Positions 48,866 to 64,000 of a stretch of DNA of 64,000 bases are shown here, one piece after another (the stretch's first letter is position 1; each line of letters opens with the position of its first letter). Both the position numbers and the translations under genes were made by a program. The DNA lies in NCBI GenBank assembly GCA_963844035.1, contig CAWJMT010000037.1, positions 96,001 to 160,000 on the forward strand, given 5' to 3'. The notes beneath the pieces were generated by a model, which worked only from the letters and a program-made list of their open reading frames with translations, was not told the origin of the DNA and made no database searches. Source of the stretch: an uncultured Gemmatimonadales bacterium (GTDB lineage Bacteria; Gemmatimonadota; Gemmatimonadetes; Gemmatimonadales; GWC2-71-9).

Positions 48866-51800
48866 CTAGAACCGGGCTCGCCAGAATGCTGCCGCCGTCG
48901 GGAACAACTTCTCGGTGAGTGTGGCCGAGAGGGTGACGAACACCCCGTGCCCGCCGCGCACCGAGAAATCGGGATCGGTCAGGTCGCCGAAACGATACCC
49001 GGTCGCGATCTCGAGGCCGGTGACAGGCCGCAGGGCAAGGGTGGGCGACGCATCCCACCGTGTGGCACCGCTCGATCGCTCGATCAGCAACCGGCCGTCA
49101 CCGCGTACGCTCATCCAGGGGCTCAGGGTGACGTTCAGGCGGCTGCCCACGTAGTCCGCCCAGGCGACGAGGGCCTGGGGTGCCCCGTCCGGGTACACGC
49201 CCTGGGTCTCGGTGCGGCGCATCGCGTAGCGGGTGCCGACCTCGAGCTGCGGAGCCGGCGTCCAAATCATCTCGGCCGCCGCGATCGCCCGTTGCTCGAC
49301 TCCCTGGGAAACGAGCACGCCGCCGCCGATCGGGTTGCGGGCATCGGTCCACTGGAACTTCGCGAGCATGTTGAGGCGATCGCTGTGCGCCGGCCGGAAC
49401 GCGAGGCCCCACAGGCTCGACAGCTGGCGGGACAGCGGCGCGCCGGGCAACGCGTTCTGGGAGAACTGTTGCCGGGTGAGCAGGGCAAGCGACGCATCGA
49501 ACGAGACGTCGCCGACCACGGTGGCGAGACGGCTCGACTGCAACAGGCCGTCCTTGTACTCGCCGCGGGCGCTCAGCCGGTACGGCGCGTGCGCGGGCAG
49601 TAACTCCATGCCGGCACCGAACGACCAGTAGTCGTCCTCGGGCTGGAGGAAGGGCAGGGCCCGGACGGGATCGGTGACGGACGCGCTGCCGACACCCATC
49701 CGGCGCTCGAACATCACGTTGACCGCCAGGTCGGACCCCAGCTGCAGCCGGTTGCGCAGACCCACCAGCGCGGCGTTGCCCGCGCCGTTGATGCCGCCGC
49801 TCAACTGGTAGCTGCCCCACGCCTCGGTCCCGTGTCCCACGCCCGCGCGCACGCCGACGCTCGAGATCGAATACCGAGTCTGGCTGTCGGGTCGCGACAC
49901 GAACCGCTGGCCGGCCTCGAGCGCCACGGCCGGAGAAAGGTGATAGGCCCCGCCGACCCCCCAGAAATCGGGCGCGAGCTCCTGGCCGTCGAGGCTCAGG
50001 TGGCGCCGCGCTTCCGTCCAGAGCTGCAGGTGCTGGTCCTTTACCCACTTCGCCTTGAGGTCGGCCGTAGTCGCCTCGCTCAACCCGAGCCCGGTTACCA
50101 AGGCACCCGCTACCTGTTCGTTCGTGACCCCCGCGTCCAGCTGCACGTCGCGCAACAGGGGTTGCACCAGGCTCACGCGGCTGCGCTCGCGCTCGATTCC
50201 CTGCAGCGTGAACTGCTGGCTCGAGTGCTCGGCACGCAGCTCCGTCGCGCCGAGCCTCAGGCCGCTCTTGAGGTTTACTTCGGTGAGCCCGGGCTGCAGC
50301 GCAACGTTGGCCGGGTTCGTGAATTCGCGGTCGATCCGCATGTAGCCCGCCCCGATCGTCCAGGCGCCGTTGAACAGGCGATAGCCTACTCGCGCCAGCG
50401 TTCCGAAGCCGGCGGAGTCGCCGCGCTCTGCGTACGCCACTTCGGCGGACGCGTCGAGTCCACCGAAGCGCACCGCGCGCAGGTCGCCGCCCACCAACCG
50501 GTAGCCGCCCCCCGCCTGGTCGGCGCTCACCGCGGTAAGCCCGATCCGCATCGAATCCAGCCGCACGCCGCCCGCGAGCCGCCGCACGTCCAGCGCCGCC
50601 CGGCCGCCGGCGACGAACCGCTGGTCCCCGCCCGACGCCGCCTCGAAGGTGGCGACGATGAACACCGGATTGCCGCCTCCGTCCGCCGCAGGAATCGGCT
50701 GCTTGAACAGCACCACGCCGCCGCTGTAGTTGATCTCGTAGTCCACGAAGCGGGTCAGCGCCTGCGTGGCCACGGCGCGCTCGGGATTCGCGACGTCGCG
50801 CGTCTCGATGCGCAGATGCTCGGTGCCCGGCAGGATATCGGGGGCAAGCGTGTAGGGACCGGAGACGCCCGCGCCCCGGATCTGCAGCTGCCGCAGCGCC
50901 TGCGCGGTCAGGCTCCCGAAGCCGCTCCACGTCACGGCGCCGGTGCTGACGCGCGCGGCCAGACCCGTCACGGCGCGCCCGTACTGCGCGAGGGTCAGGC
51001 CGCGCGCGAAATCCGCGGTGGCGAGATCGCCGAACGCCGCCCAATCGAAGCCCCGCTCGAGCCGGGCCGAGAGCCAGGTGCCCGACGCCGTGCGGGTCTC
51101 GAGTTGACTCGCGTCCCCGAGGATCGGGTACTCCGACTCCTTCAAGGGGTCCACGCTGCGGCCGAACGCATCCTGTCCGTCGCGCAGCCGTCGAGAGTCG
51201 AGGCCGAGCGTGAGCGACGTCCGCGCGTCGAGCTGCCCGCGCGCGGTGATCGCCCCGTAGGCGTCGGGGCTCGCGCCCACCCCCACGAGCCCCGAGCCGG
51301 TCAGCGTGAGGGGCCGCACGGCGGGGAGGATCTCGAGCGGCAGGGCGATCGTGGCGTCGCCCGACTTGAGTTCGAGCTCCCCGTGCCTGACTTCGCGGCC
51401 GGGCCGCAGGCTGACCATCAGCCAGCCGGAAGAGTCGGACAAGACTTGCGTCCCGACCGAGGACGGGTCCGCATCTCGCCCCATCGGCTCTGCGCCGCCG
51501 GCGCTCACCGTCACGTACGCCGGCTGCACCACCGGCACCCCCCAGGCGTCGAGCACACGCACCTTCGTGCTCGCGACCGTGCGCCCGTCCGCCTGCAGCG
51601 TGAGCGGACCCGCGCTCGCCGCGAATTGGACCGGGAGACCGGTCACGTGGACGGCCACGCTGTCCCAGCGCTCGCCGCCCCAGGAGTTCTTCGCGCGCAC
51701 GCGCAGCAGATGCGGGCCCCGCGCGAGCGGCACCGCGACGAAGTCGTACACGCCGTCGACGCGGACCTGAGCCGAATCGACCGCTGTGGCGCCGTCGTAC

Positions 51801-54800
51801 AGCACCACGGGCGTGCCGGGCTCGCCCTTCACCCCCACGTACACGCGGTCGCTCGCCAGCACCGTCCCGTCGTGCGGGGCGAAGATGTCGATACCCGCGC
51901 CCAGCACGATCCCCGCCTGCTGTCCGCCCTTGGTCGCGACCCGGGTGCGTGCCAGCGGTACCGTCACAGGTTCCCGCGCCGGGCCGTCGCCTGTGGACGC
52001 CGCTCCCGTGGCGCGCCCCGCGCTGTCCGCCGTCGACGCCACTACCCCCGGCCGTCCGGCGGGGAGCGGCTCGCGCGACACTTCCGCCATCTGGCCGGAC
52101 GGCGTGACAAAGTCCGGAGCGATCTGGCGAACCAGCGCAGTCATCCACGACGATGGCACATCGGGGTCCCGGGCTTCGGTCAGCGGGGACGCGCAGCGGC
52201 AAACGGCTCTTGCCGACGCGGAGCGTCGCGGTCGCGGAATCGCTGCCGATGGACGACCACGCGAATATCCGGATCTCACTCCGGGGCCGGCCCACGGGCA
52301 ATGGAATCGCCGTGTTGCCGAGCCACGCGTAGCTGGTGAACTGGGTGTCGCCCACGAACACCAACGCGGAGTCGGCGAGCGGAGAGAACTCCACCATCCC
52401 GTCGAGCGGCATGGGGGCATCTTTCCTCAGCATCACTTCGTAGCGCATCTGCGGCCAAGCCAGCCCACCAACGGACGAACGCGATCTGTGTATCCGGACC
52501 GCCGCGAACTTCATGCTCACCACTTTTGACAGATCCGCCACTGTCAGATCCGCCGCTGGCAGGTCCACCGCCGGCAGGTCCACCGCAGGCGCCGCGACGA
52601 TGGCCGGGGCCTGGCGCAGGCCGCCCACCACCGGCGCTCCGCTCGGGGGGATGCCGAGGTCCACCGGGGGCGTCGTCCCGAGGGTGGCCGGCGCCTGGCG
52701 CAGGCTCTCCGCCACCGGCGCTTCGTTCGGGGCGACGCGGAAATCCACCCGGGGCGTCGTCCATCCGCTGGCCTCGACCGCCTGAATGTCGTCGCTCAAC
52801 ACCCGATAGCCCGGGGGCAGCGTCCGGGGGTCGAGGCGGAGCGCATGGCGACCGGGCCGCAGGTTCGCGAACGAGAACTTGCCGGTCGAGTCGGTGGTGG
52901 CAACCTGGCCGTCCTCGGTCCAGATGTCGATGCCCGCGAGGCCGCTGTCGCCCGCCTGTTGAGTGCCGCGGCCGGCGCGGTCGATCCACACCTTCCCGAT
53001 CGCCGCCCGCGTCTCCATCGGCCAGGCGCGGCGCACCTGCACCCATGCGACCGCTTGGGGCGAGACGACCTGGGCCGCTGCGGCCTGTGCGCCCGCGATC
53101 GCGCGCATCTCGGCCACCAGCCCCGGGGCCGACGCCAGCGCGACGCCGACGTGGAAGCTGCGCGTGGCGCCGGGCGCGAGTGGCGCCACGCTCACGAGCA
53201 CCAGCTGGCTCCCCGCCACCAGGACGGAGTCCGCGCCGAGGGCGGTGCCCTTGGCATAGCTCCCGCCCGCGGGCAGCGTATTCGTTATGCGGATGTCGTC
53301 GATCGGAACGATTCCGGAATTCCGCACAACGAGCGTGTAGGGGATGACCTCGCCCACGCCGACCTCGAGGGCATCGGCGGTGAGATCGAGCGCGACGGCG
53401 GTGCTGGGGGGCCCGATCAGAGCCAACAGCGCCGCCCTGACGGACAGCGCCGAGGCGTTCGTCGCAGCGAGGGCCCCCACGTTGCGGGCCCACACCGTGT
53501 CGCGCACGGCGGCGTTCACCTGAAGCACGACGTCAACAACCCCGCTGTCGCCGGGTGCGAGCGTACCCAGCGCCCAGCTGAGCACCGACCCGGAGGCAGC
53601 CGCCGGGGGCACCGCACTCACGTAGTCGAGGCCGGCCGGCAGCGTGTCGGTCAGGACCGTGTTGGACACGGCCGCGCCGGTCGGCGCGTTGCCATAGTGC
53701 AGCACGTAGTGCACCTGCTGCCCCGCCAGGGCCTGGGTCGCACCGACGAGCTGTTTCGAAAGCGTCAGGAGCGGCACCAGGACGCTGGTCTGGACGGCGT
53801 TGGTGTACGTCGTGTCGGTTATGCCGCCCGACGCGTAGACCGTGTGACCGCGGTTCGTCACGGTGCGCGCGGGACCCGGGTCCACCGCCACCTGGAACGT
53901 CACCGCGCCCAGGGCCCCAGCGGCCACGCCGCCCAGGTCCACGACCACGACGCCCGAGCCCGCGGGAACGATCGCGCCGGCGTCGTCGCCCGTGGCGTCG
54001 GTGAGGGGGGCGCCGTTCCACCGGAGGGTGCCGGGCACGTAGGTCGTGCCTGCTGGGATCGTATCGGCGAGCTGGCCGCTCGTGGTCGTCCCGCTGCCCG
54101 ACGCGGCGTAGGCAATCGTGTAGCTCAGCACATCACCCGCCACCGCGGTGGCCCGGTCCACTTGCTTGGTGAGGGCCAGGGTGACCGGCGTGACGGGCAC
54201 GTCCAGCCGGTCCCGCACCGTGTCACTCACGGCGGGATTGAACCAGCTCATCGCGCTCACCGCAACGGTGTCGGTCGCGCCCAGCACCCCGGCGGCGCCG
54301 GGGATCGCGACCTGCGCCAGCAGATACGCGATGCCGGCATACCCCAGCGCGACCGGCCCGGCAAGCGCCGGGTCGGCGGGGTCGAGCAGGCCGTCGGCGT
54401 TCACGTCGCGATACAGCGTCACGGGCCATCCGTGACTCGACACGCCGGCGACGGTGAACGAATCCGGACCGTTCCCGACGTTCGTGAGAGTGTGCGCGAA
54501 CAGGACCGCGGTGCCGGCGGCCCCACTCGAGACTCGTGGCGGCTCGACGTCCGCCCCCGCGACTTGGCCGACGAGGACGTCGGCCGTGTCGGAATAGGAG
54601 ACGAACCCCGTCCCGCTCGGGGTATCGAACGTGGCGACCGCCCAGGCACGGATCTGCGTTCCCGCGGGGGTGCCCTGAGCGGCGACAGGCGATTACGACA
54701 AACAACCTGAAAGCACAGAGGAGGGCGGCCGTCCGGCCCGCGACCGCTAAGCCGCGCCGGGCGAACCGCCCCCTCTGCACTCCGCAGGTGCCGAACTGCA

Positions 54801-54801
54801 T
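48866..54801 (-). CDS. Very large (about 1975 aa) outer-membrane protein: N-terminal donor-like hairpin, Ig/DUF11 repeats, SdrD-B-like domain, C-terminal beta-barrel (frameshifts near 54695 and 52185)
   Basis: Mature start 'QGTPAGTQIRAWAVATF'; three DUF11 repeats; 'IGKVWIDR...GLAGIDIWTEDG...TDSTGKFSF'; 'YPILGDAS', 'DYEINY', amphipathic strands, terminal Phe 'FWRARF'. Confidence 0.8.
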
Positions 54802-54816
54802 CGAGACGCTCGGCCC

Positions 54817-56042
54817 CTAGTTGATGCTGACGCGGAGTTCGAACGTGGCGCTACCGGCCGCGGCCAGGACACCACCGGTGCCCGTGTAGTCCGCCGTCAC
54901 GTTCTGCCCGACCACCCCAACACTCCAGCCGGTGGACGAGCTGGTGGATACGTACGTCACCTGCGCCGGCAACGCATCGGTCACCTGCACGCTCGAAGCG
55001 GAGGTGGAGCCGCCGTTGGTCACTGTGATCCGGTACCGGATGACCTGCCCGGGGACCACCGTGCCCGAAACCGGCGTGACCCCGTCATCGAGGTACGCGG
55101 CCTTGGCGAGCGTGAGGTTCGGCTTGATGACCGTCAGGTCCATGAAGCCCTGATTGGTCGTCGCGGGCTGTCCGACCGACGCGGCCGAGCAGGTTCAACG
55201 TGTCCGTCGATCCGCCGGCCACGTTCGCCACGTTGTAGATGACCGCGACCGCCTGCGACGCGCCGGCTGCCAGCGTGAAGCGCGCACTGTCACCGGCAAC
55301 GCCGTTCACCGACACGATGGTGATCACCGCGGACCCCGGGCTCGACCCCAGCAGATCGAAGTCGTCGCTCCCGTTGCCGTTGTTCTGCGCGGTGAAGCGT
55401 GAACGAATAGTTGTTGCCCGGGAGCCTCTGGACGTTCTGGCCCCCGTCCGGCGTGACTGCGACTGCGTGCGTCTGCGACGGGGTGATACTGCTCGCGGCG
55501 TTGCCCGACGTGGCCGGCGTGCGCCGTGACGTGGCCGTCAGGGTGTAGACGGTGTTCACGCCGCCCTTATTGCTCGCCACGTCATAGACAACCTTGACCG
55601 TGATCGAGCCGCCTTGCGCGATTGACGCACCCGCGAGCGCCGCGTTCAGCGCCGCGAGGCTGGCGTACGTGGTGCCGCTGTAGCGGTACCCCGTCACCGA
55701 AATCACGCCGGCGACGGAGATGTTCTGGGAGATCGTGACGCTGTCGTTGCCGTTGCCCGCGTTTGCCACCGTGAAGTCCAGCGTGTCGGCGGTGCTCGGC
55801 GACGCGGGGGTCGGGCTGGGTGTGTTAGCGGTCACCGCGACGCCGGCCGTGAAGCCGACCGTCACCGAAACCGATCCCGTGACCGGGGTGTAGGCGTTGT
55901 TGTTGGCGTCGGTATAGGTCGCGGTCGCCGTGTTCGTGATGACCGTGCCCTCCGGCGTCTGCGCCACGACTCGCGCGGTGACGGCGATGAGTGCCACCAC
56001 AGCGACGGCGAGGCTTTGGGTCCAGCGCAAGTACTTGAACAT
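54817..56042 (-). CDS. Secreted DUF11 protein, putative major fimbrial subunit (frameshifts near 55400 and 55180)
   Basis: Sec signal, then 'QTPEGTVITNTATATY', two Ig-like domains ('NAGNGND', 'NNGNGSD'), C-terminal DUF11 'LTLAK...PGQVIRYRITVTN...VTDALP...FELRVSIN*'; AAGGAG RBS. Confidence 0.8.
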
Positions 56043-56083
56043 CTGTCATCTCTCCTTGAGGTTGATTTCCGTTACCCGGACGC

Positions 56084-56590
56084 CTACTTCGCCTCGCCGG
56101 GTCCTGCATTCAGTTGCGCGCGAAACTCCGCGGTCACCTGTGCTCCCGGCGCCACGGACTCGAGTACCGTCCAGCGCACGTGCGTGTACAGCTCGCGCGG
56201 CGCCGGCTTCGTCACCTTGTGACCCTTCTCTTCCGCTTCGATGGTCGGCTCCGCGCTGTACGTCTTGCCGCCGTCGATCGAGAACGCGATGCGGGTCGGC
56301 TGGCGCGCGGCTGCCGAGCCAAGCACGTAGACCAGGCCCTGCGGGATCGGATCTTCGAACTGCACGTTCTTGACGGGCCCCTGCGTGAGGTTCGTGAAGA
56401 CGAGGGTGTAGCGGATCTCGTCTCCGGGGCGGGCGAGCGTCGAGTTTTTCCGCCCGCTCGCGGCTGCAGCAGTCACGTTGTGCGCCGTGATCACCAGCGC
56501 CTTGGGGCTCTGCGCCTGCGCGACAGCGACAACGGGCCAGGCCAGCACGGCGGCCAGGGTCGCAACGATCAGCATTCGCATCGTTCTCAT
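56084..56590 (-). CDS. Small secreted single-DUF11 protein (putative chaperone or minor subunit)
   Basis: Signal peptide ending AQA; 'ARPGDEIRYTLVFTN', 'EDPIPQGLVYVLGSA', 'FSIDGGKTY', 'YTHVRW'; AAGGAG RBS. Confidence 0.8.
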   Translation of the reverse strand: MRTMRMLIVATLAAVLAWPVVAVAQAQSPKALVITAHNVTAAAASGRKNSTLARPGDEIRYTLVFTNLTQGPVKNVQFEDPIPQGLVYVLGSAAARQPTRIAFSIDGGKTYSAEPTIEAEEKGHKVTKPAPRELYTHVRWTVLESVAPGAQVTAEFRAQLNAGPGEAK

Positions 56591-56671
56591 GTTCGGGCTC
56601 TCCTTTACCTGCGTGTGTATCGAGCGTGTTAGGGTCATCAGTCCTCTGTTGTGCCAGGCGTGCCGCGCCGC

Positions 56672-56812
56672 TCATCCCCTTCGGGTTGGGCGGCGGCTCC
56701 CTCGCCACAGCGGAACACCGCACTCGCATCGAGGGCAAACGACCAACTCACCCAGGACCTGCGGGCGACCGAAGAACGTCAGTTCTGAGCAACTGGGGCA
56801 GCGTCGAACCAT
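56672..56812 (-). CDS. 46-aa zinc-ribbon microprotein
   Basis: GAGGAG RBS; MVRRCPSCSELTFFGRPQVLGELVVCPRCECGVPLWRGSRRPTRRG (two CxxC). Confidence 0.5.
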   Translation of the reverse strand: MVRRCPSCSELTFFGRPQVLGELVVCPRCECGVPLWRGSRRPTRRG

Positions 56813-56844
56813 GTGTCGCAGCACTCCTCTCGAGCACGCGGAAA

Positions 56845-56860
56845 AGCAGGTCCTGTGCCC
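56845..56860 (-). promoter_or_regulatory. Putative sigma54 (-24/-12) promoter for the DUF11 operon
   Basis: Minus strand GGGCACAGGACCTGCT = GG-N10-GC; AT-rich IHF-like tract at 56876-56903 upstream. Confidence 0.6.
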
Positions 56861-56947
56861 CACGTGCCAAACTGCATAAACTAGTTATGTGACAATGAGT
56901 TACGTTACTTCTTGCTGGCGGGGTGGTGCTGCGGAACTGCTGGCGAT

Positions 56948-56975
56948 GTTACCCTGCGGTAACGCGGTTGGTAAC
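56948..56975. promoter_or_regulatory. Putative enhancer (UAS) copy 1
   Basis: GTTACC-ctgc-GGTAAC-gcggtt-GGTAAC. Confidence 0.65.
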
Positions 56976-56996
56976 GCCTGGTCTGTGGTTCTGGGC

Positions 56997-59900
56997 TTAC
57001 CTGATTCGCGCGGTGAAGCCGATGGAGCCGGTGTTGTTGGGCGCGGTTTGGCTCAAGCTGCCGGTGAATGTCCAACGGATATTGGTGACCTGTCGATCAT
57101 AGCCCGCTGGCGCACCCCCGGCACCGCTGGTGGGGATGTACGTCCACGTGGTCCCTCCGTTACTCGAGTACGCCACGACCACCGTGAGACCGGTCGAGCC
57201 GAGATTGCTCGTGACAGACCCCACCTTGAAGTCGGAGTTGGTCGATACGGAATCGATGAGGACCAGCGCCTCCGCGGCGCTGCCGCCCGAGTTGGTGAAC
57301 GTCAGCGTGTAGGTGAGATCGGTGCCTGCCGGCACGGTGCCCGATGGGACGACGCTGTGTGCCAGCCCCATGGTCGGTGCCGTGCGGGTCAAGACCACGT
57401 CGTTGCCGGTGCCACCGACGTAGCTGATCTTGAAGGTCAGGTTGCTCAGTGTGACGGTGGATCCTTCCGGCAGTCCGGCGAAAGTCCCCGTTATCGCATC
57501 GCCCCCGTCGTTGGTGATGACGGTGAAGGTCATGCCATCGGTGGTCGCAAAGCCCACCGTGCCGCTCAAGGCGGCGCCACTCACGTTCACGGTCCCCGTC
57601 ACGTTGAGTCGATCGTAGCCGCTGCCCACGGTGGTGCCGTTGAGCTCGACCACGAAACCGGGTGCGCCGCTGCTCCAATTCACGTTACCGCTGTTGAGAA
57701 TGCCCGGGCCCGATCCGGGCGAAACTGTTCCGCCCAGGGCGGTGGAGGTGATCGCCCCTACCGTGCCCGTACCACCCAGCGTGCCCCCGTTCAGGCTCAC
57801 GGCGCTCGAGCCTTGGGAGCCGTTTACGAGCAGCGTCCCCGCACTGACGGTCGTCGTCCCGGTGTAGGTGTTGGCGGCGCTCAGCGTGAGCGTGCCCGCC
57901 CCATCCTTGGTCAGGGTCCCGGTGGTGGTGCCGATCACGCCGCTCACCGTGGTGTTGCCAGCGCCCCCAACCGTCAGGCCGACGCCCGCGCCGCTGATCG
58001 TGTTGGAGACGGTGAGTGTGCCCGCGTCGGAGTTGATGCGCGCCGCGCTCCCCAACGTGATCGCGCCGGACCAGGTGTTGTTGTTGGCCAGGTTGCGCAG
58101 GGCGCCGCCGCCGGCAATCCCGGTCCCGTTCAGGGTGATCGGCTCCGCGATCAGCAGCCCGCTGCCATCCACCTGGAGCGCCGCCCCGGCGGTTACGGTC
58201 GTCGCTCCGGCGGTCGTCCCCAGGGCCGTGTTGTTCTGAGCGTCGAGCACGCCCGCACTCACCGTCGTCACACCGGTGTAGGTGTTGGCGCCGGAGAGCG
58301 TCAAAGTGCCGGTCCCCGCTTTGGTCAGCGTCACGGTCCCGCTGCCGTTCTGGAGGATCCCGGAGAACAACGTGCTCGTGTTGTTGCCCCCCGCCGTGAG
58401 CGTTACCGCGCCCGCCACACCGCTCGTCACCGTGCCGGCGCCGGCGAGTGAGCCGATCGCGTCGCTGAACCCGTTGAGATCGAACGTGGCTGCTCCGGCC
58501 ACGGTCACGGCGCTGCTCGCGCCCACCGCGTTGGCGATGCCCAGCCTCAGGGCGCCCGCACTGATGGTGGTCGCCCCCGTGTAGGTGTTGGCGGCGCTCA
58601 ACGTGAGCGTGCCTGTCCCATCCTTGGTCAGAGTCCCGGTGGTGGTGCCGATCACGCCGCTCACCGTGGTGTTGCCTGCCCCCCCTACGGTTAACCCCAT
58701 CGTGGCGCCGCCGATGGTGTTGGACAGCGTGAGCGTGCCCGCATCGGAGTTGATGCGCGCCGCACTCCCCAACGTGATCGCGCCCGACCAGGTGTTGTTA
58801 TTGGCCAGGTTGCGCAGGGCACCGCCGCTCGCAATCCCGGTCCCATTGAGGGTGACCGGCTCCGCGATCAACAGCCCGGTGCCATCCACTTGCAGCGCCG
58901 CCCCGCTCGCCACCGTCGTGGCTCCCGCAACTGTTCCCAGGGCCGTGTTGGTCCGGGCGTCGAGCACCCCCGCGCTTACCGTCGTCACCCCGGTGTAGGT
59001 ATTGGCGGCGCTCAGCGTGAGCGTGCCTGCGCCCGCTTTGGTGAGGCCGCCCGCTCCGCTCGTGACACCGCTGAGGGTGAGCGTGCTTGCGGCATCAGTG
59101 ACCGTGATGGTGCGGGTTGCGGCGAAGGCCATCGCCAGGCTGATCGTATTGGATCCAGCGACACTGCCGTCCGTCAGGTTGCCCGCACCAAGCACGATGG
59201 AATTGCCGGCCAGCGTATAGCCCGTGCCGGTGATGGTGATCGAATTGAAGGTCGTCGCGGCCGCCAGACCGTTTGAATTGGAAAGATTCGCCGCGCCGCC
59301 CGGGAAGATGAGATCCTCTCCTCCCACGAGTGGCGTGCCACCCAGGCCCGACCAGTTGCCCCCGTTGACCCAGAGATTGCTCACCGCGCCGGTCCAGGTG
59401 GCGGTCGTGGCTCGAGCGAGAGCCAGGGTCTGCCCGACTCCCACATCGGCGTCGTTCGAGGCGGTCGCCGTCTTCACTCCGGTCGCTCCAGCAACCGGTT
59501 GCACGACGTAGTTCATTTCGAGCGTGATCCCGACGGCATTCGGTACGGCATCCGAAGAGACATCGACCGCCTCCGTCATCCCGCCGGGCGGGGTCCAGGT
59601 TGCAGCCGAGGTGAAACTGTGGGTGGTGACGATCATGTCATAGCTCTTCGTGGTCGTCACACTGGGGGCGGCGTGGGTCAGCGCGCTGGCCGTCACCTGT
59701 CCGTTTTCGATATCGACGGGAGCAGCGGTGTTGACCCCGAAGAAGGTCACGATGCCGCCCGCCGAGCCGGTGGACGTGTTGAAAGTCCAGGTGTAGCTCG
59801 CGGGCTCGCCCGCGGCGGCGACCTTCCGATAGGTCGCCTGCGAGCTGGCGTTGGTCGCCGCCTGGTTCGTGCGGCGAATCAGGGTCCAGCCCGCGGGCGC

Positions 59901-60302: not shown

Positions 60303-60330
60303 ATTACCTCCCGGTAACCAGAACGGTATC
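60303..60330. promoter_or_regulatory. Putative enhancer (UAS) copy 2
   Basis: ATTACC-tccc-GGTAAC-cagaac-GGTATC, same spacing as copy 1. Confidence 0.65.
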
Positions 60331-61732
60331 ACCCTCCCCCGCCGGCGCTGGGCGTCTCGGCGAGCAGCCCGTGCTTCTTCCGCTTCTCCCACAGGTTCTT
60401 ACGGCTGATACCCAATATCTCAGCCGCCCGCTGGATGTCGCCGCTCGTTTCTTCCAGCGTGTGGCGAATGTATTCCCGTTCCGCTTCGGCCAGGGTGAGT
60501 CCCTTGGGGAGTTGGAAAGTCGTGGCGCGTGGCGGGCCGGCCCCGCCTCCGCCCGCGCGCTGGCCGAGCGGCGGGAGGTCCGAGCGATTCAGGACCGGCC
60601 CTTTACTGAAGATCATCGCACGCTCGATCACGTTGCGCAGCTCGCGGACGTTGCCGGGCCAGCTCCAGGTCTGCAAGGCCGTGAGCGCGGCCGGATCGAT
60701 CGATTCCACCCGCTTCTTGAACTCCAGGCTGAACGTTTCGCGGAAGTGATTCGCCAGGAGGGGGATGTCGGTCTTGATGTCGCGTAAGGGCGGCAGGGTC
60801 ACGCTCGCGACGCCGACCCGGTAGTAAAGGTCGGAGCGAAACGCACCCGTCGCCACAAGCTGCTCCAGGTCCCCGTTCGTGGCCGTTACGAGCCGGAGCG
60901 CCACCTCCAGCTCCTCCGTGCCCCCGAGGCGGCGAACCCGGCGGCTTTCGAGCACGTTCAAGAGCTTGGCCTGAAGCTCGGGGCCGAGCTCCGCGATCTC
61001 GTCCAGGAACAGCGTCCCGCCGTCGGCCACCTCGATGAGTCCGCGCTTCGCCTCACGGGCGTCGGTGAACGCGCCCTTCTGGTAGCCGAACAGCTCCGCC
61101 TCGAGCAGGTTCGCGGGCAAGGCCGAGCAGTTGATCTCGACGAACCGGCCCGCCGAGTGCGGGCTGGAGTAATGAATGGCGCGCGCGACCAGGTTCTTGC
61201 CGGTGCCGCTTTCCCCGAGCAGCAGGACGGTGGGACGCGGGATGGCCGCCATCTGGCGGACGAATTCGCGGACCTGTTCGACCTTGGGATGCAGGCCGAG
61301 GATCGCGCCAACCGAGAACTGCTGCCCGCGGGCCTGTTCAAGCGAGGCCCCCGCCTCGAGGAGCGGTCGTTCCTTGAGCGCCCGCACGAGGAATGTGGTC
61401 AGCTCGTCCACGTTGACGGGCTTTGTGAGGTACTCGGTGGCGCCCGCTTTCAGCGCCTCGACAGCGGTGGCGATGTCGGCGTGCCCCGTGAGGATGAAGA
61501 TGGGGAGATGGGGGTCGACAACGCGCAGGCGGCGGGTCACTTCGACGCCGTCCAAATCCGGCATGACGAGATCGGTGATGACGGCGTCCGCCGGCTGCTC
61601 CGCATGGCGCGCCAGCAGGGCATCGGGCCGCTCGAAGACCGTGCTGCGGAACCGGCCCCCCGGCCCGAGGTTCGCGGCCACGAGCTTGGCGTGCACCACG
61701 TCGTCGTCGAGGATGTAGATTTTGTAGCTCAT
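60329..61732 (-). CDS. NtrC/AtoC-family sigma54-dependent response regulator
   Basis: Receiver domain, 'GESGTGK', 'ELFGYQKGAFTDA', 'GGTLFLDEI', 'WPGNVRELRN', Fis-type HTH. Confidence 0.95.
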   Translation of the reverse strand: MSYKIYILDDDVVHAKLVAANLGPGGRFRSTVFERPDALLARHAEQPADAVITDLVMPDLDGVEVTRRLRVVDPHLPIFILTGHADIATAVEALKAGATEYLTKPVNVDELTTFLVRALKERPLLEAGASLEQARGQQFSVGAILGLHPKVEQVREFVRQMAAIPRPTVLLLGESGTGKNLVARAIHYSSPHSAGRFVEINCSALPANLLEAELFGYQKGAFTDAREAKRGLIEVADGGTLFLDEIAELGPELQAKLLNVLESRRVRRLGGTEELEVALRLVTATNGDLEQLVATGAFRSDLYYRVGVASVTLPPLRDIKTDIPLLANHFRETFSLEFKKRVESIDPAALTALQTWSWPGNVRELRNVIERAMIFSKGPVLNRSDLPPLGQRAGGGGAGPPRATTFQLPKGLTLAEAEREYIRHTLEETSGDIQRAAEILGISRKNLWEKRKKHGLLAETPSAGGGG

Positions 61733-61741
61733 TGGCCGCAC

Positions 61742-61766
61742 CTGTCCCCGCTAATATTGGGGACAG
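61742..61766. promoter_or_regulatory. Inverted repeat in the short divergent intergenic region
   Basis: CTGTCCCC-gctaatatt-GGGGACAG. Confidence 0.5.
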
Positions 61767-61788
61767 CCCCCCCGCACAGCCAGGACCT

Positions 61789-62160
61789 ATGGCCGCTTCG
61801 TTCCGGGCGTTGATCATCGACGACGACCCCGACCTCTTGAGCTTGATCCGGCGTACGCTCGAGTTCACGGCCGGATGGGACGTGCAGACGGCGCTCTCGG
61901 GCGCCGCCGGGATCGCGCTGGCCCGCGCCGCGCCGCCCGACGTGATCCTGGTGGACGTGATGATGCCCGAGATGGACGGCTACGAGGTGTGCCGCCGGCT
62001 CAAGGCCGACTCCGCGACGGCAGCGGTGCCGGTTGTGTTGCTGACGGCTCGCCGGGAACTGGACGACCGGCTGCTCGCGGGGACGGGCTCGGCGGGTGTC
62101 CTGCTCAAGCCGTTTCAGCCCCAGGACCTCGCGCGCCAGGTCCGCGAGCTGTGCCCATGA
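61789..62160 (+). CDS. Single-domain response regulator
   Basis: 'LIIDDD', 'DVMMPEMDGYEVC', 'LLTA', 'KPF'. Confidence 0.92.
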   Translation: MAASFRALIIDDDPDLLSLIRRTLEFTAGWDVQTALSGAAGIALARAAPPDVILVDVMMPEMDGYEVCRRLKADSATAAVPVVLLTARRELDDRLLAGTGSAGVLLKPFQPQDLARQVRELCP

Positions 62161-64000
62161 GCACGCCGGATCCCCTCGCCGAAGTCAGGGCGGAGTTCGC
62201 CGCCGGCCTGAACACGCGGATCGACGCGATGCGCGGGGCTCTCGAGCGGCTGCGCACCGATTTTTCCACCCAGGATGCGGAGCGGCTGTACCGGGCGGCG
62301 CACTCACTCACCGGCACAGCTGGGAGTTTCGGGGCCGAGGCGCTCGGGCACGTCGCGGGGGATCTCGAGTCGCTGGCGCGCGGGTGGCTCGCGCGCGGCC
62401 GCTCCCTCCCGGAGGAATGGCGCGTCGCCGCTGCCGCCATCAGGGAGCTCGACGCGGCCGCGCGCGAATACCGGACCACCGCGGCCCCCGGGGTGCTCCG
62501 CTCGCCGGCCGCCCGCCTGGCCGTCGTGGGCGAGCTCACATCGCTCATCAACGCCGCCGTCGACATGCGCGAGATCTTCCGGGGTGCGATCCTCAAGGTG
62601 CAGCGCGTCCTGGACTTTCGCCGGGCGAGCGTGGTGCTGATCGACGACACCGCCACGCACTATTACGTCCACACTCTGTACGACCGGGACCGCGGCGGGT
62701 TCGTGACCCGTGAAGCGGTGTTTCCCATCGAGCAGGGAATCACCGGGCAGGCGATCCGCTCCGGGCACCCGATCCGCGTGGACGCCCTGCCGGGAACCGA
62801 AGGCATTCTGTTGCAGGAGGGCAAGCACGTCTCGGCGATGATCGTGCCGCTGCACGTCGGCGACCGGGTGATCGGCGCGCTCAATTTCGGGCACGAAGAT
62901 CCGGGGCGCTATTCGGAGGACGATCTCGACTGGGCGGTCGTGCTCGGCCGCCAGATCGAAACCTCGCTCTACTACTCCAAGCTCCTGAGCACCATCGCCG
63001 AGCAGCGCGAGGCCCTGGCGCGGGAGCACGAGGCGGTGCAAAGCCAGCGCAACCGGCTCGAGGCGCTGATCGACGCCAGCGACGCCGCCATCATGCTGGT
63101 CGGGCCCGACCGCCGCATCGCGCACGCCAACGCCGAGATGGCGCAGCTCGTGGGGATTCCCCGGGAAGCGATGCGGGGCGCGAGCGTGGACAGCATCCAC
63201 CGGTTTCTCGCGGGATCCTTCGTCGAGCCGAAGGCGCTGGCCGCTCAGGAGGAGGCTCTGTCGGTCGACGTTTCGCTGCGCGACCGGGTCGAGCTCAAGT
63301 TCCCGCAGCGCGCCGTGTACCAGCGGGTGGTGGCGCCGGTGCGCGAGAGCCTGGGAGCGCTGCTCGGCCACATCGTGCTGTACCGCAACGTCACCCACGA
63401 GGTGGAGGTCGAGCGGGCGAAATCCGAATTCGTGTCGGTGGTGAGCCACGAGCTGCGCACGCCGATGACGTCCGTGAAGACTTCCCTCTCGCTGCTGCTG
63501 GACGGCGCCGGGGGACCGCTGGGAGCCACCGCCAGGGAGCTGCTCGAGATCGCCCACCGCAACGCGGAGCGGCTGATCCGCCTCGTGAACGACCTGCTCG
63601 ACCTGTCGCGCCTCGAGGCGGGGCGGATGGAGTTGCACATCGAGCGAGTCGCGCTGGGCGAGGCGATCAAATCGAGCGTCGACGCCGTCCGCGGGTTCGC
63701 AGACGAGCGGGAGGTTGCGATTGCGCTCGTGCCGCCTCCAGAGCCGATCGCGGTCCAGGGGATGCGCGACCGGGTGGAACAGGTCGTGGTGAACCTGCTC
63801 GCCAACGCCATCAAATTCTCCCGCTCGGGCGGCCAGGTGCGGGTGCGGTGGTGGCGGGACGAGGCGGCGCCGTGGTCGAGGTGGCCGACCAGGGGCCCGG
63901 TATTCCGGCCGACAAGCTGGGCGTGATCTTCGAGCCGTTCCGCCAGCTGGACAGCTCGACCACGCGTGAGCACGGCGGCGCGGGACTGGGACTGGCAATC
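62157..64000 (+). CDS. Hpt-GAF-PAS sensor histidine kinase (runs off window; frameshift near 63870)
   Basis: Hpt '[12 protein letters not shown]', GAF, PAS, 'SHELRTPM', 'NLLANAIKF', then 'VADQGPGIP...IFEPFRQ...[10 protein letters not shown]' in a shifted frame. Confidence 0.92.

Follow-up and report, generated by a model that had tools for sequence, protein, structure and literature searches.

A split CLIPPER (DUF11) domain in a diderm bacterium, with a predicted sortase-free isopeptide lock between putative pilus subunits

The window, by which we mean the whole 64,000-nucleotide stretch of uncultured Gemmatimonadales DNA analyzed here, carries on its minus strand four genes that we read as encoding a candidate tip adhesin, a small acceptor-only protein, a major (shaft) subunit, and an anchor (Table 1). 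Gene order (adhesin - small protein - major - (minor) - anchor) is preserved as far as each contig extends, and in nearly all of the 54 loci that we collected the named relatives are Gemmatimonadota, a diderm phylum. The original prediction quoted reactive-residue motifs in the major subunit, anchor, small protein, and adhesin, and all of them are present on the minus strand as quoted. Residues are numbered here from P0001, an intact homologue of 407 aa that is 88% identical over its first 214 residues, in which the triad is N37, K313, and D355. The C-terminal 844 aa of the anchor are similar, with a score of 0.97, to clusters that carry the automatic name of outer membrane proteins. The gap between the adhesin and small-protein genes (56640-56990, ~400 bases) looks non-coding, and an AT-richer patch in it near 56880-56910 could be an internal promoter. 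Just upstream of the cluster, at 60329-63926, ORFs on the same or the opposite strand resemble, by eye, a sigma-54-type response regulator, a small receiver protein, and an Hpt/GAF histidine kinase, and these may regulate the cluster.

Table 1. Features of the gene cluster, in window coordinates
Feature	Coordinates	Strand	Remarks
Anchor gene	48866..54801	minus	Leader, donor hairpin, Ig domain, three DUF11 repeats, SdrD_B-like domain, C-terminal outer-membrane-like region
Anchor repeat 3	53030..53400 (ends approximate)	minus	Ala/Asn/Arg at K/D/N sites; natural negative control
Anchor repeat 2	53421..53786	minus	Complete CLIPPER domain: K 53756-53754, D 53648-53646, N 53483-53481
Anchor repeat 1	53787..54185	minus	Complete CLIPPER domain: K 54167-54165, D 54065-54063, N 53855-53853
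Anchor donor hairpin	54570..54677	minus	Ala (54647-54645) at Asn site
Major (shaft) subunit gene	54817..56042	minus	~407 aa in intact homologues
C-terminal DUF11/CLIPPER acceptor of major	54820..55128	minus	Without the last two strands
Asp355 (VTDALP), predicted catalytic acid	54976..54978	minus	
Lys313 (LTLAK), predicted isopeptide lysine	55102..55104	minus	
Ig-like domain D2 of major	55129..55475	minus	Contains both assembly frameshifts
Ig-like domain D1 of major	55476..55853	minus	Complete beta-sandwich in model
Donor beta-hairpin of major	55854..55961	minus	Strands at residues 34-41 and 54-61; corresponds to the last two CLIPPER/DUF11 strands
Asn37 (VITNTA), predicted isopeptide acyl donor	55932..55934	minus	
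Signal-peptide-like leader of major, residues 1-27	55962..56042	minus	By-eye reading; conserved A27-Q28
Small DUF11 protein, 168 aa, acceptor only	56084..56590	minus	Ala (56485-56483) at Lys site; no donor hairpin
Tip adhesin candidate, 1035 aa	56997..60104	minus	PF12951 passenger-associated repeats; C-terminal acceptor from ~57377; His (57359-57357) at Lys site

As assembled, the major gene runs through three frames, with single extra bases near 55397-55399 and near 55180, and because of these two bases the Asn and the Lys/Asp pair fall in different ORFs. The extra base near 55397-55399 is absent from public-run contigs X1, X2, and X5, and the one near 55180 from contigs X1, X4, and X5; one X5 contig (~95% identity) covers 54832-56131 without either. 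In a survey of the phylum, 20 of 201 genomes matched the major subunit, the window's own genome included, and the other full-length matches had open frames in 18/18 cases, one of them from the same genus. Since near-identical contigs lack the breaks and all of the other matches are open, we read the breaks in the major gene as likely assembly errors. A frame change in the anchor gene near 54693 is likewise absent from the X1 and X4 contigs. A decayed gene from which this organism makes no protein would fit the assembly at face value, which holds two frameshifts in the major gene and at least two in the anchor gene, but that reading is very improbable given that three of these indels are missing from near-identical contigs and that the homologues, including the congeneric one, are open. 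A frame change near 52200 also splits the anchor gene, and no contig was seen to bridge that site.

The C-terminal acceptor of the major subunit matches PF01345 (DUF11) with 47.8 bits against a cut-off of 24.6, over model positions 10-84 of 114. DUF11 has been renamed CLIPPER, a CnaA-like domain with a crystallographic Lys715-Asn806 bond beside Asp748 (PMC12617251; PDB 9IFR). When a profile of 20 complete anchor repeats was searched against the PDB, the best match was 9IFR (E 9.7e-8), and the anchor K and D were placed on the first-strand Lys and the 'NDTL' Asp of that structure (chain positions 10 and 44); the alignment ends short of the 9IFR Asn. The Lys-Asp spacing is 34 in the 9IFR chain versus 33 in the paper's numbering, K715/D748 (PMC12617251). 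K313 and D355 of the major subunit sit at the same motif positions as the K and D of the anchor repeats, and anchor repeat 1 of locus L002 scores above the threshold of TIGR04226, a model for domains that form isopeptides. Neither the major profile nor anchor repeat 2 gave a significant match in PDB sequence searches, and the acceptor alone found 9IFR at E 0.12, ranked under antibody noise.

We then aligned the major subunits to a control HMM made from complete tandem repeats, 254 in all and drawn from 71 unrelated giant proteins, that were chosen by N-x-G and D-x-[LIVMF]-P motifs. The Asp in this HMM is fixed by selection because the repeats were chosen by the second of these motifs; Lys is found in 243/254 of the repeats and Asn in 252/254. 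On this HMM the acceptor halts at column 94-95, at most one residue from the protein end, in 46/49 majors. A penultimate-strand Asn inside the same contiguous domain is thus absent from the major subunit, which ends before that strand in those 46/49, and N37 of the N-terminal hairpin falls on the conserved Asn column 105 in 48/49. Taken singly, the matches at the N terminus are weak, at about -1.5 to 15 bits. A search for shorter relatives made of donor and acceptor only returned short partial matches that look like fragments.

In the AlphaFold2 full-length model (mean pLDDT 91.7), the two-strand hairpin is followed by three Ig domains. Two Ig domains had been predicted to lie between the Asn and the Lys/Asp pair, and the model agrees, with domains at residues ~64-189 and 190-305 of P0001. 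The hairpin and D1 folded alone form a rigid unit (pTM 0.84). The full-length model gives the hairpin high confidence, which we considered as a sign that it folds back onto its own acceptor; we rejected this, as the confidence is equally high without the acceptor. The matches from fold searches were generic Ig domains, the best at Z 11.0 and 10.9, with 9IFR at Z 9.0-9.4 to D2 and D1; no solved filament of this family is among the fold matches listed, an absence that proves nothing.

The proposal had been staked in advance on conservation of K, D, and N in homologues, and the three residues are conserved far from the window. Among 48 distant full-length representatives (33-61% identity), taken from 150 listed after exclusion of tandem-repeat giants and partial proteins, K and D are found in 48/48 each and N in 46/48, with Ser in the other two. 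In 95 close homologues, picked from the best 120 of 567 matches with odd lengths excluded, the counts for K, D, and N are 95, 95, and 93. K313 is the sole Lys among the 6 of P0001 to be retained in more than 14 of the 48 distant homologues; of its 14 Asp, D355 and one other are retained in 48/48. N37 is one of 8 among 28 Asn retained in at least 45 of the 48, so its conservation by itself is not distinctive; what is distinctive is its placement on the isopeptide-type Asn column. Across the 54 loci, the major triad reads N-K-D in 47, D-K-D in 2, S-K-D in 1, and N-Q-D in 1, and the remaining majors are either truncated (2) or frameshifted (1). The two majors with Asp in place of the donor-strand Asn (L047:2714-3979 and L048:3127-4392) could form a Lys-Asp bond (-18 Da) instead. 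In the adhesins, the Asp is retained in 38/38, even where the Lys is gone, so conservation of the Asp can be structural.

The anchor repeats allow the triad to be viewed in intact domains. The original prediction held that the complete anchor repeats keep K, D, and N in one domain, and this is seen for repeats 1 and 2; in 36 unsplit anchors, the counts for repeats 1 and 2 are K 33 and 34, D 35 and 36, and N 36 and 36. Repeat 3 of the same anchors has K in 0/36, N in 0/36, and D in 11/36. Because repeat 3 has lost K, D, and N together, the triad is dispensable for the fold, and its retention in the major subunit therefore points to chemistry. Separately, the anchors of L027, L029, L036, L039, L043, and L044 have no Ig domain after the donor hairpin, which (Asn 6/6) runs straight into repeat 1.

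The junctions that flank the shaft were predicted to be non-covalent. For this genome that part stands, as the residues needed at the Lys or Asn sites are absent from the small protein, the adhesin, and the anchor donor; as a statement about the family it holds for the small protein only. The small protein has Lys in 0/49 loci (Ala in 47, Val in 2). The adhesin has it in 22/39 loci (one frameshifted locus dropped, two read by eye), with Asn at the Lys site in 14/39, and a hand-read table of basal donors gives Asn in 31/47. The X1 contig over the anchor donor of the window differs by one letter in 311, which is too few to make an Asn codon. A Fisher test of Asn in majors versus basal donors gives P 0.0006, a value that ignores kinship and that we do not rely on. 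The adhesin acceptor (57000-57377) and the small protein (56084-56590) share an insertion, YS-x-x-GG-x-T, and a later H/N-x-R-W-T, which the major acceptor does not have, and this shared sequence suggests a common origin for the two. Adhesin genes vary greatly in length between loci, and many are cut by locus edges; the C-terminal acceptor is constant, and in several loci the adhesin body resembles the D2 domain of the major subunit.

Several observations bear on whether the hairpin acts on another chain. A donor-hairpin HMM scored at least 10 bits in 50/52 majors and 38/47 next genes, and in 0/38 adhesin ORFs (some 5'-truncated), 0/49 small proteins, and 0/1873 opposite-strand ORFs. The major gene is the only core-locus gene to carry both the donor and the acceptor halves. 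In 7/54 loci (L033, L034, L037, L042, L047, L048, and L051), two genes share anchor repeat 1, always divided at the same point, such that an upstream product of ~310 aa ends in an acceptor with K and D (7/7) and the downstream anchor starts with a leader and a hairpin with N (6/7). Because repeat 1 is divided between two genes in these loci, the hairpin can come from another chain; the seven cuts may reflect a single ancestral event, and the loci are kin. In 4/35 fully readable loci, and in the window, neither flanking junction has both reactive residues, and the major triad is kept, with Asp for Asn in one of the four. As the triad is kept where neither flanking junction could react, we infer that the partner of a major must be another major.

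Unguided coevolution analysis of 216 sequences (effective number 73) recovered within-domain pairs, and its top 100 held 4 hairpin-acceptor pairs versus 8 D1-acceptor noise pairs. Guided analysis of hairpin-acceptor pairs in the mapped register gave a mean z of 0.06 (P ~0.35, 33 pairs) versus 1.0 for the within-acceptor control (61 pairs); a register shifted by one residue gave 0.74, picked post hoc among 49 shifts. In another locus, a single ORF (L024:1193-3268) fuses the major acceptor to the donor hairpin of the next gene. Gln takes the place of the Lys there and Ser that of the Asn, which looks as though a peptide bond substitutes for the isopeptide; this is one metagenome assembly, and the fusion could be an error.

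From these sequences we consider it probable that the major subunit forms a head-to-tail donor-hairpin polymer with an autocatalytic Lys-Asn lock between subunits, where both the Lys313-Asn37 bond and its inter-subunit nature are predictions. The subunits would be exported by Sec, and the N-terminal two-strand hairpin of each would complete the C-terminal acceptor of the neighboring, more distal subunit. Asp355 would then catalyze a spontaneous bond that links the acceptor's Lys313 to Asn37 on the entering hairpin, with loss of ammonia (-17 Da) at each junction as in intact CLIPPER domains. Assembly would take place at the putative outer-membrane barrel of the anchor. In the polarity that we favor, donors point toward the tip: the donor of a major would fill the acceptor of the adhesin, which caps the tip, each new major donor would fill the previous acceptor, and the anchor donor would terminate the chain. 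The Lys-less small protein is a candidate reversible cap or chaperone, which might, more speculatively, sheathe the donor hairpin in the periplasm against premature locking. In this genome, covalent junctions would be limited to those between shaft subunits.

The same conservation of K, D, and N would be explained equally well if the hairpin filled the acceptor of its own chain, giving a circularly permuted, closed three-domain monomer with an intramolecular bond. The CLIPPER bonds described to date are all intramolecular, and Cna folds tolerate domain insertions between the bonding residues (PMC12617251); closed monomers have also been modeled for other donor-strand pilins (PMC11821415). However, a closed subunit could pair with neither the adhesin, which has only an acceptor, nor the anchor donor, which is why we infer that a chain is the simpler reading, and the same split operates between separate genes in the seven loci described above. 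The inter-domain linkers are just a few residues long, and the hairpin and D1 are modeled as a rigid unit without the acceptor. An indirect point against closure is that residues 1-163 of the model aligned to a tandem integrin leg at 4.1 angstrom. We therefore hold the closed monomer to be unlikely. A polymer in which hairpin complementation occurs and the junction is unbonded or only partly reacted, with the triad kept for packing or as a relic, is about as unlikely. Because the flanking junctions often miss a reactive residue, complementation must be able to work without the bond; the bond is absent from some DUF11 domains (PMC12617251), and oligomers of the BsaA N35A mutant are stable until heated (bioRxiv 10.1101/2024.11.04.621531). 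Against this, the major triad is near-invariant down to 33% identity, whereas in anchor repeat 3 it is lost jointly and the Lys is missing from 49/49 small proteins.

The inter-subunit bond might also form in something much shorter than a fiber, such as a stalk in which one major or a few connect the adhesin with the anchor, or cyclic dimers or trimers, which would make a modular adhesin and not a long pilus. On the side of a short structure, five RNA runs match just 5-10% of the sampled words, which is no sign of expression, and the scan of the locus proteins turned up no usher or chaperone family. Yet no sequence feature limits the length of the chain, and in the core locus only the major has both halves, and we rate a short stalk or closed oligomer as decidedly unlikely. 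We thus retain the locked head-to-tail polymer as the preferred reading.

Tag/Catcher pairs, which are artificial splits mostly of CnaB domains, resemble the split proposed here in that a divided isopeptide domain reconstitutes. CLIPPER/DUF11 is of the same family, has the CnaA-like fold, first-strand Lys, catalytic Asp, and penultimate-strand Asn, and likewise occurs in Gram-negative surface proteins; its bond is intramolecular, in tandem stalk repeats, whereas here the Asn hairpin is at the N terminus or on another gene product (PMC12617251). For the chemistry, a close precedent is the biofilm fiber BsaA of C. perfringens, where the donor-strand Asn35 meets Lys74 and Glu56 of the next monomer in a sortase-free 'exchange and lock' that rests on models and on Ala mutants that lose oligomers (bioRxiv 10.1101/2024.11.04.621531). 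As in BsaA, the major subunit has its Asn on an N-terminal donor and its Lys and acid in the acceptor. BsaA is described there as a TasA-like single domain with one donor strand, a Glu catalyst, and a SipW peptidase, from a monoderm (bioRxiv 10.1101/2024.11.04.621531), unlike the CLIPPER domain, two-strand hairpin, Asp, two extra Ig domains, barrel-like anchor, and diderm hosts found here. The TasA family is not among the Pfam/NCBIfam matches or the fold matches listed, the acceptor belongs to another named family, and no SipW-type peptidase was matched by the four locus genes scanned (Pfam/NCBIfam).

The archaeal thread Saci_0406 also combines donor-strand complementation with a proposed sortase-free inter-subunit isopeptide bond, but there the link runs from Asn57 to the N-terminal amine of subunit n+2 and uses no Lys (PMC9715654). 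Chaperone-usher pili share a tip adhesin with an incomplete C-terminal Ig domain, N-terminal donors, an outer-membrane barrel, and a small periplasmic partner, but those of type 1 and P are non-covalent and use a single donor strand and the PapD/PapC families (set out in part in PMC11821415). In those pili a strand is supplied by the chaperone; the small protein of this cluster offers an acceptor groove only, and neither a PapC-family usher nor a PapD-family chaperone was found by Pfam/NCBIfam in the window's anchor pieces, its small protein, or the intact homologues of L002. A-ENA sporesilk of Bacillus thuringiensis forms a continuous covalent fiber through autocatalytic intermolecular isopeptide bonds, as proposed here, from alpha-helical hairpins of unrelated fold on spores (PMC13111695). 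Sortase pili also have covalent inter-subunit isopeptide links, but they need an enzyme and a sorting signal (PMC13721041); the C terminus of the major subunit is a beta-strand without a membrane tail or sorting signal, and sortase PF04203 was not found in the window's genome, which is 84% complete, in a search where controls were detected in 3/14. By these family tests, applied to sequence, the system is neither a sortase pilus nor a chaperone-usher pilus, and TasA membership is unsupported.

TLP-1 fibrils, CPR Pam pili, tafi, F-ENA, and a Litorilinea DUF11 hook were considered as prior descriptions and set aside as different systems with no mention of 'isopeptide'. Among the papers listed in searches of open-licence PubMed Central and bioRxiv, none described a split CLIPPER domain, reported a bond between subunits for this family, or dealt with this operon, and five guessed Thermus locus tags were not mentioned in the open-licence literature. 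The chemistry would be a variant of known isopeptide locking, and the assembly system as a whole could be a new pilus class.

The cluster extends beyond the phylum. The small protein matches 12 plasmid records; of the 3 examined, on Thermus thermophilus HB8 pTT27, Synechococcus NIES-970, and Deinococcus aetherius, all have the cluster. Read by eye, these plasmid clusters have an N-terminal Asn and a C-terminal Lys and Asp in 4/4 major-type genes, an Asn-bearing hairpin at the start of 3/3 adaptors, a Lys and Asp acceptor at the end of 3/3 tips, and no Lys in 3/3 small proteins. The HB8 cluster, which is complete, is TTH_RS10905-10925 (L055:13872-28228; NC_006462.1), where the barrel-like gene is separate from the adaptor, in a tractable test strain. 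Feature-based look-alikes include a 4792-member cluster that is commonest in Pseudomonadota, which we take as a lead only. That these loci represent a distinct and widespread diderm pilus class, with split-CLIPPER hairpin exchange, a giant barrel, a sortase-free autocatalytic lock, and an 'inverse' chaperone in the form of a Lys-less acceptor that covers the donor and does not fill the groove, is a broader proposal that we put at somewhat below an even chance.

Covalently linked pili are a textbook trait of sortase-bearing monoderms. If the proposal is true, a self-locking fiber in diderms would be a new route to covalent pili and would assign a role to a DUF11 gene cluster that is common but unannotated. 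Under the broader proposal, a single residue gained or lost would decide whether a tip or base junction is permanent or releasable, and every type of junction would amount to a CnaA-type Tag/Catcher pair made by nature. Such natural split-isopeptide pairs, one of them thermophilic, would be of use for protein ligation and materials.
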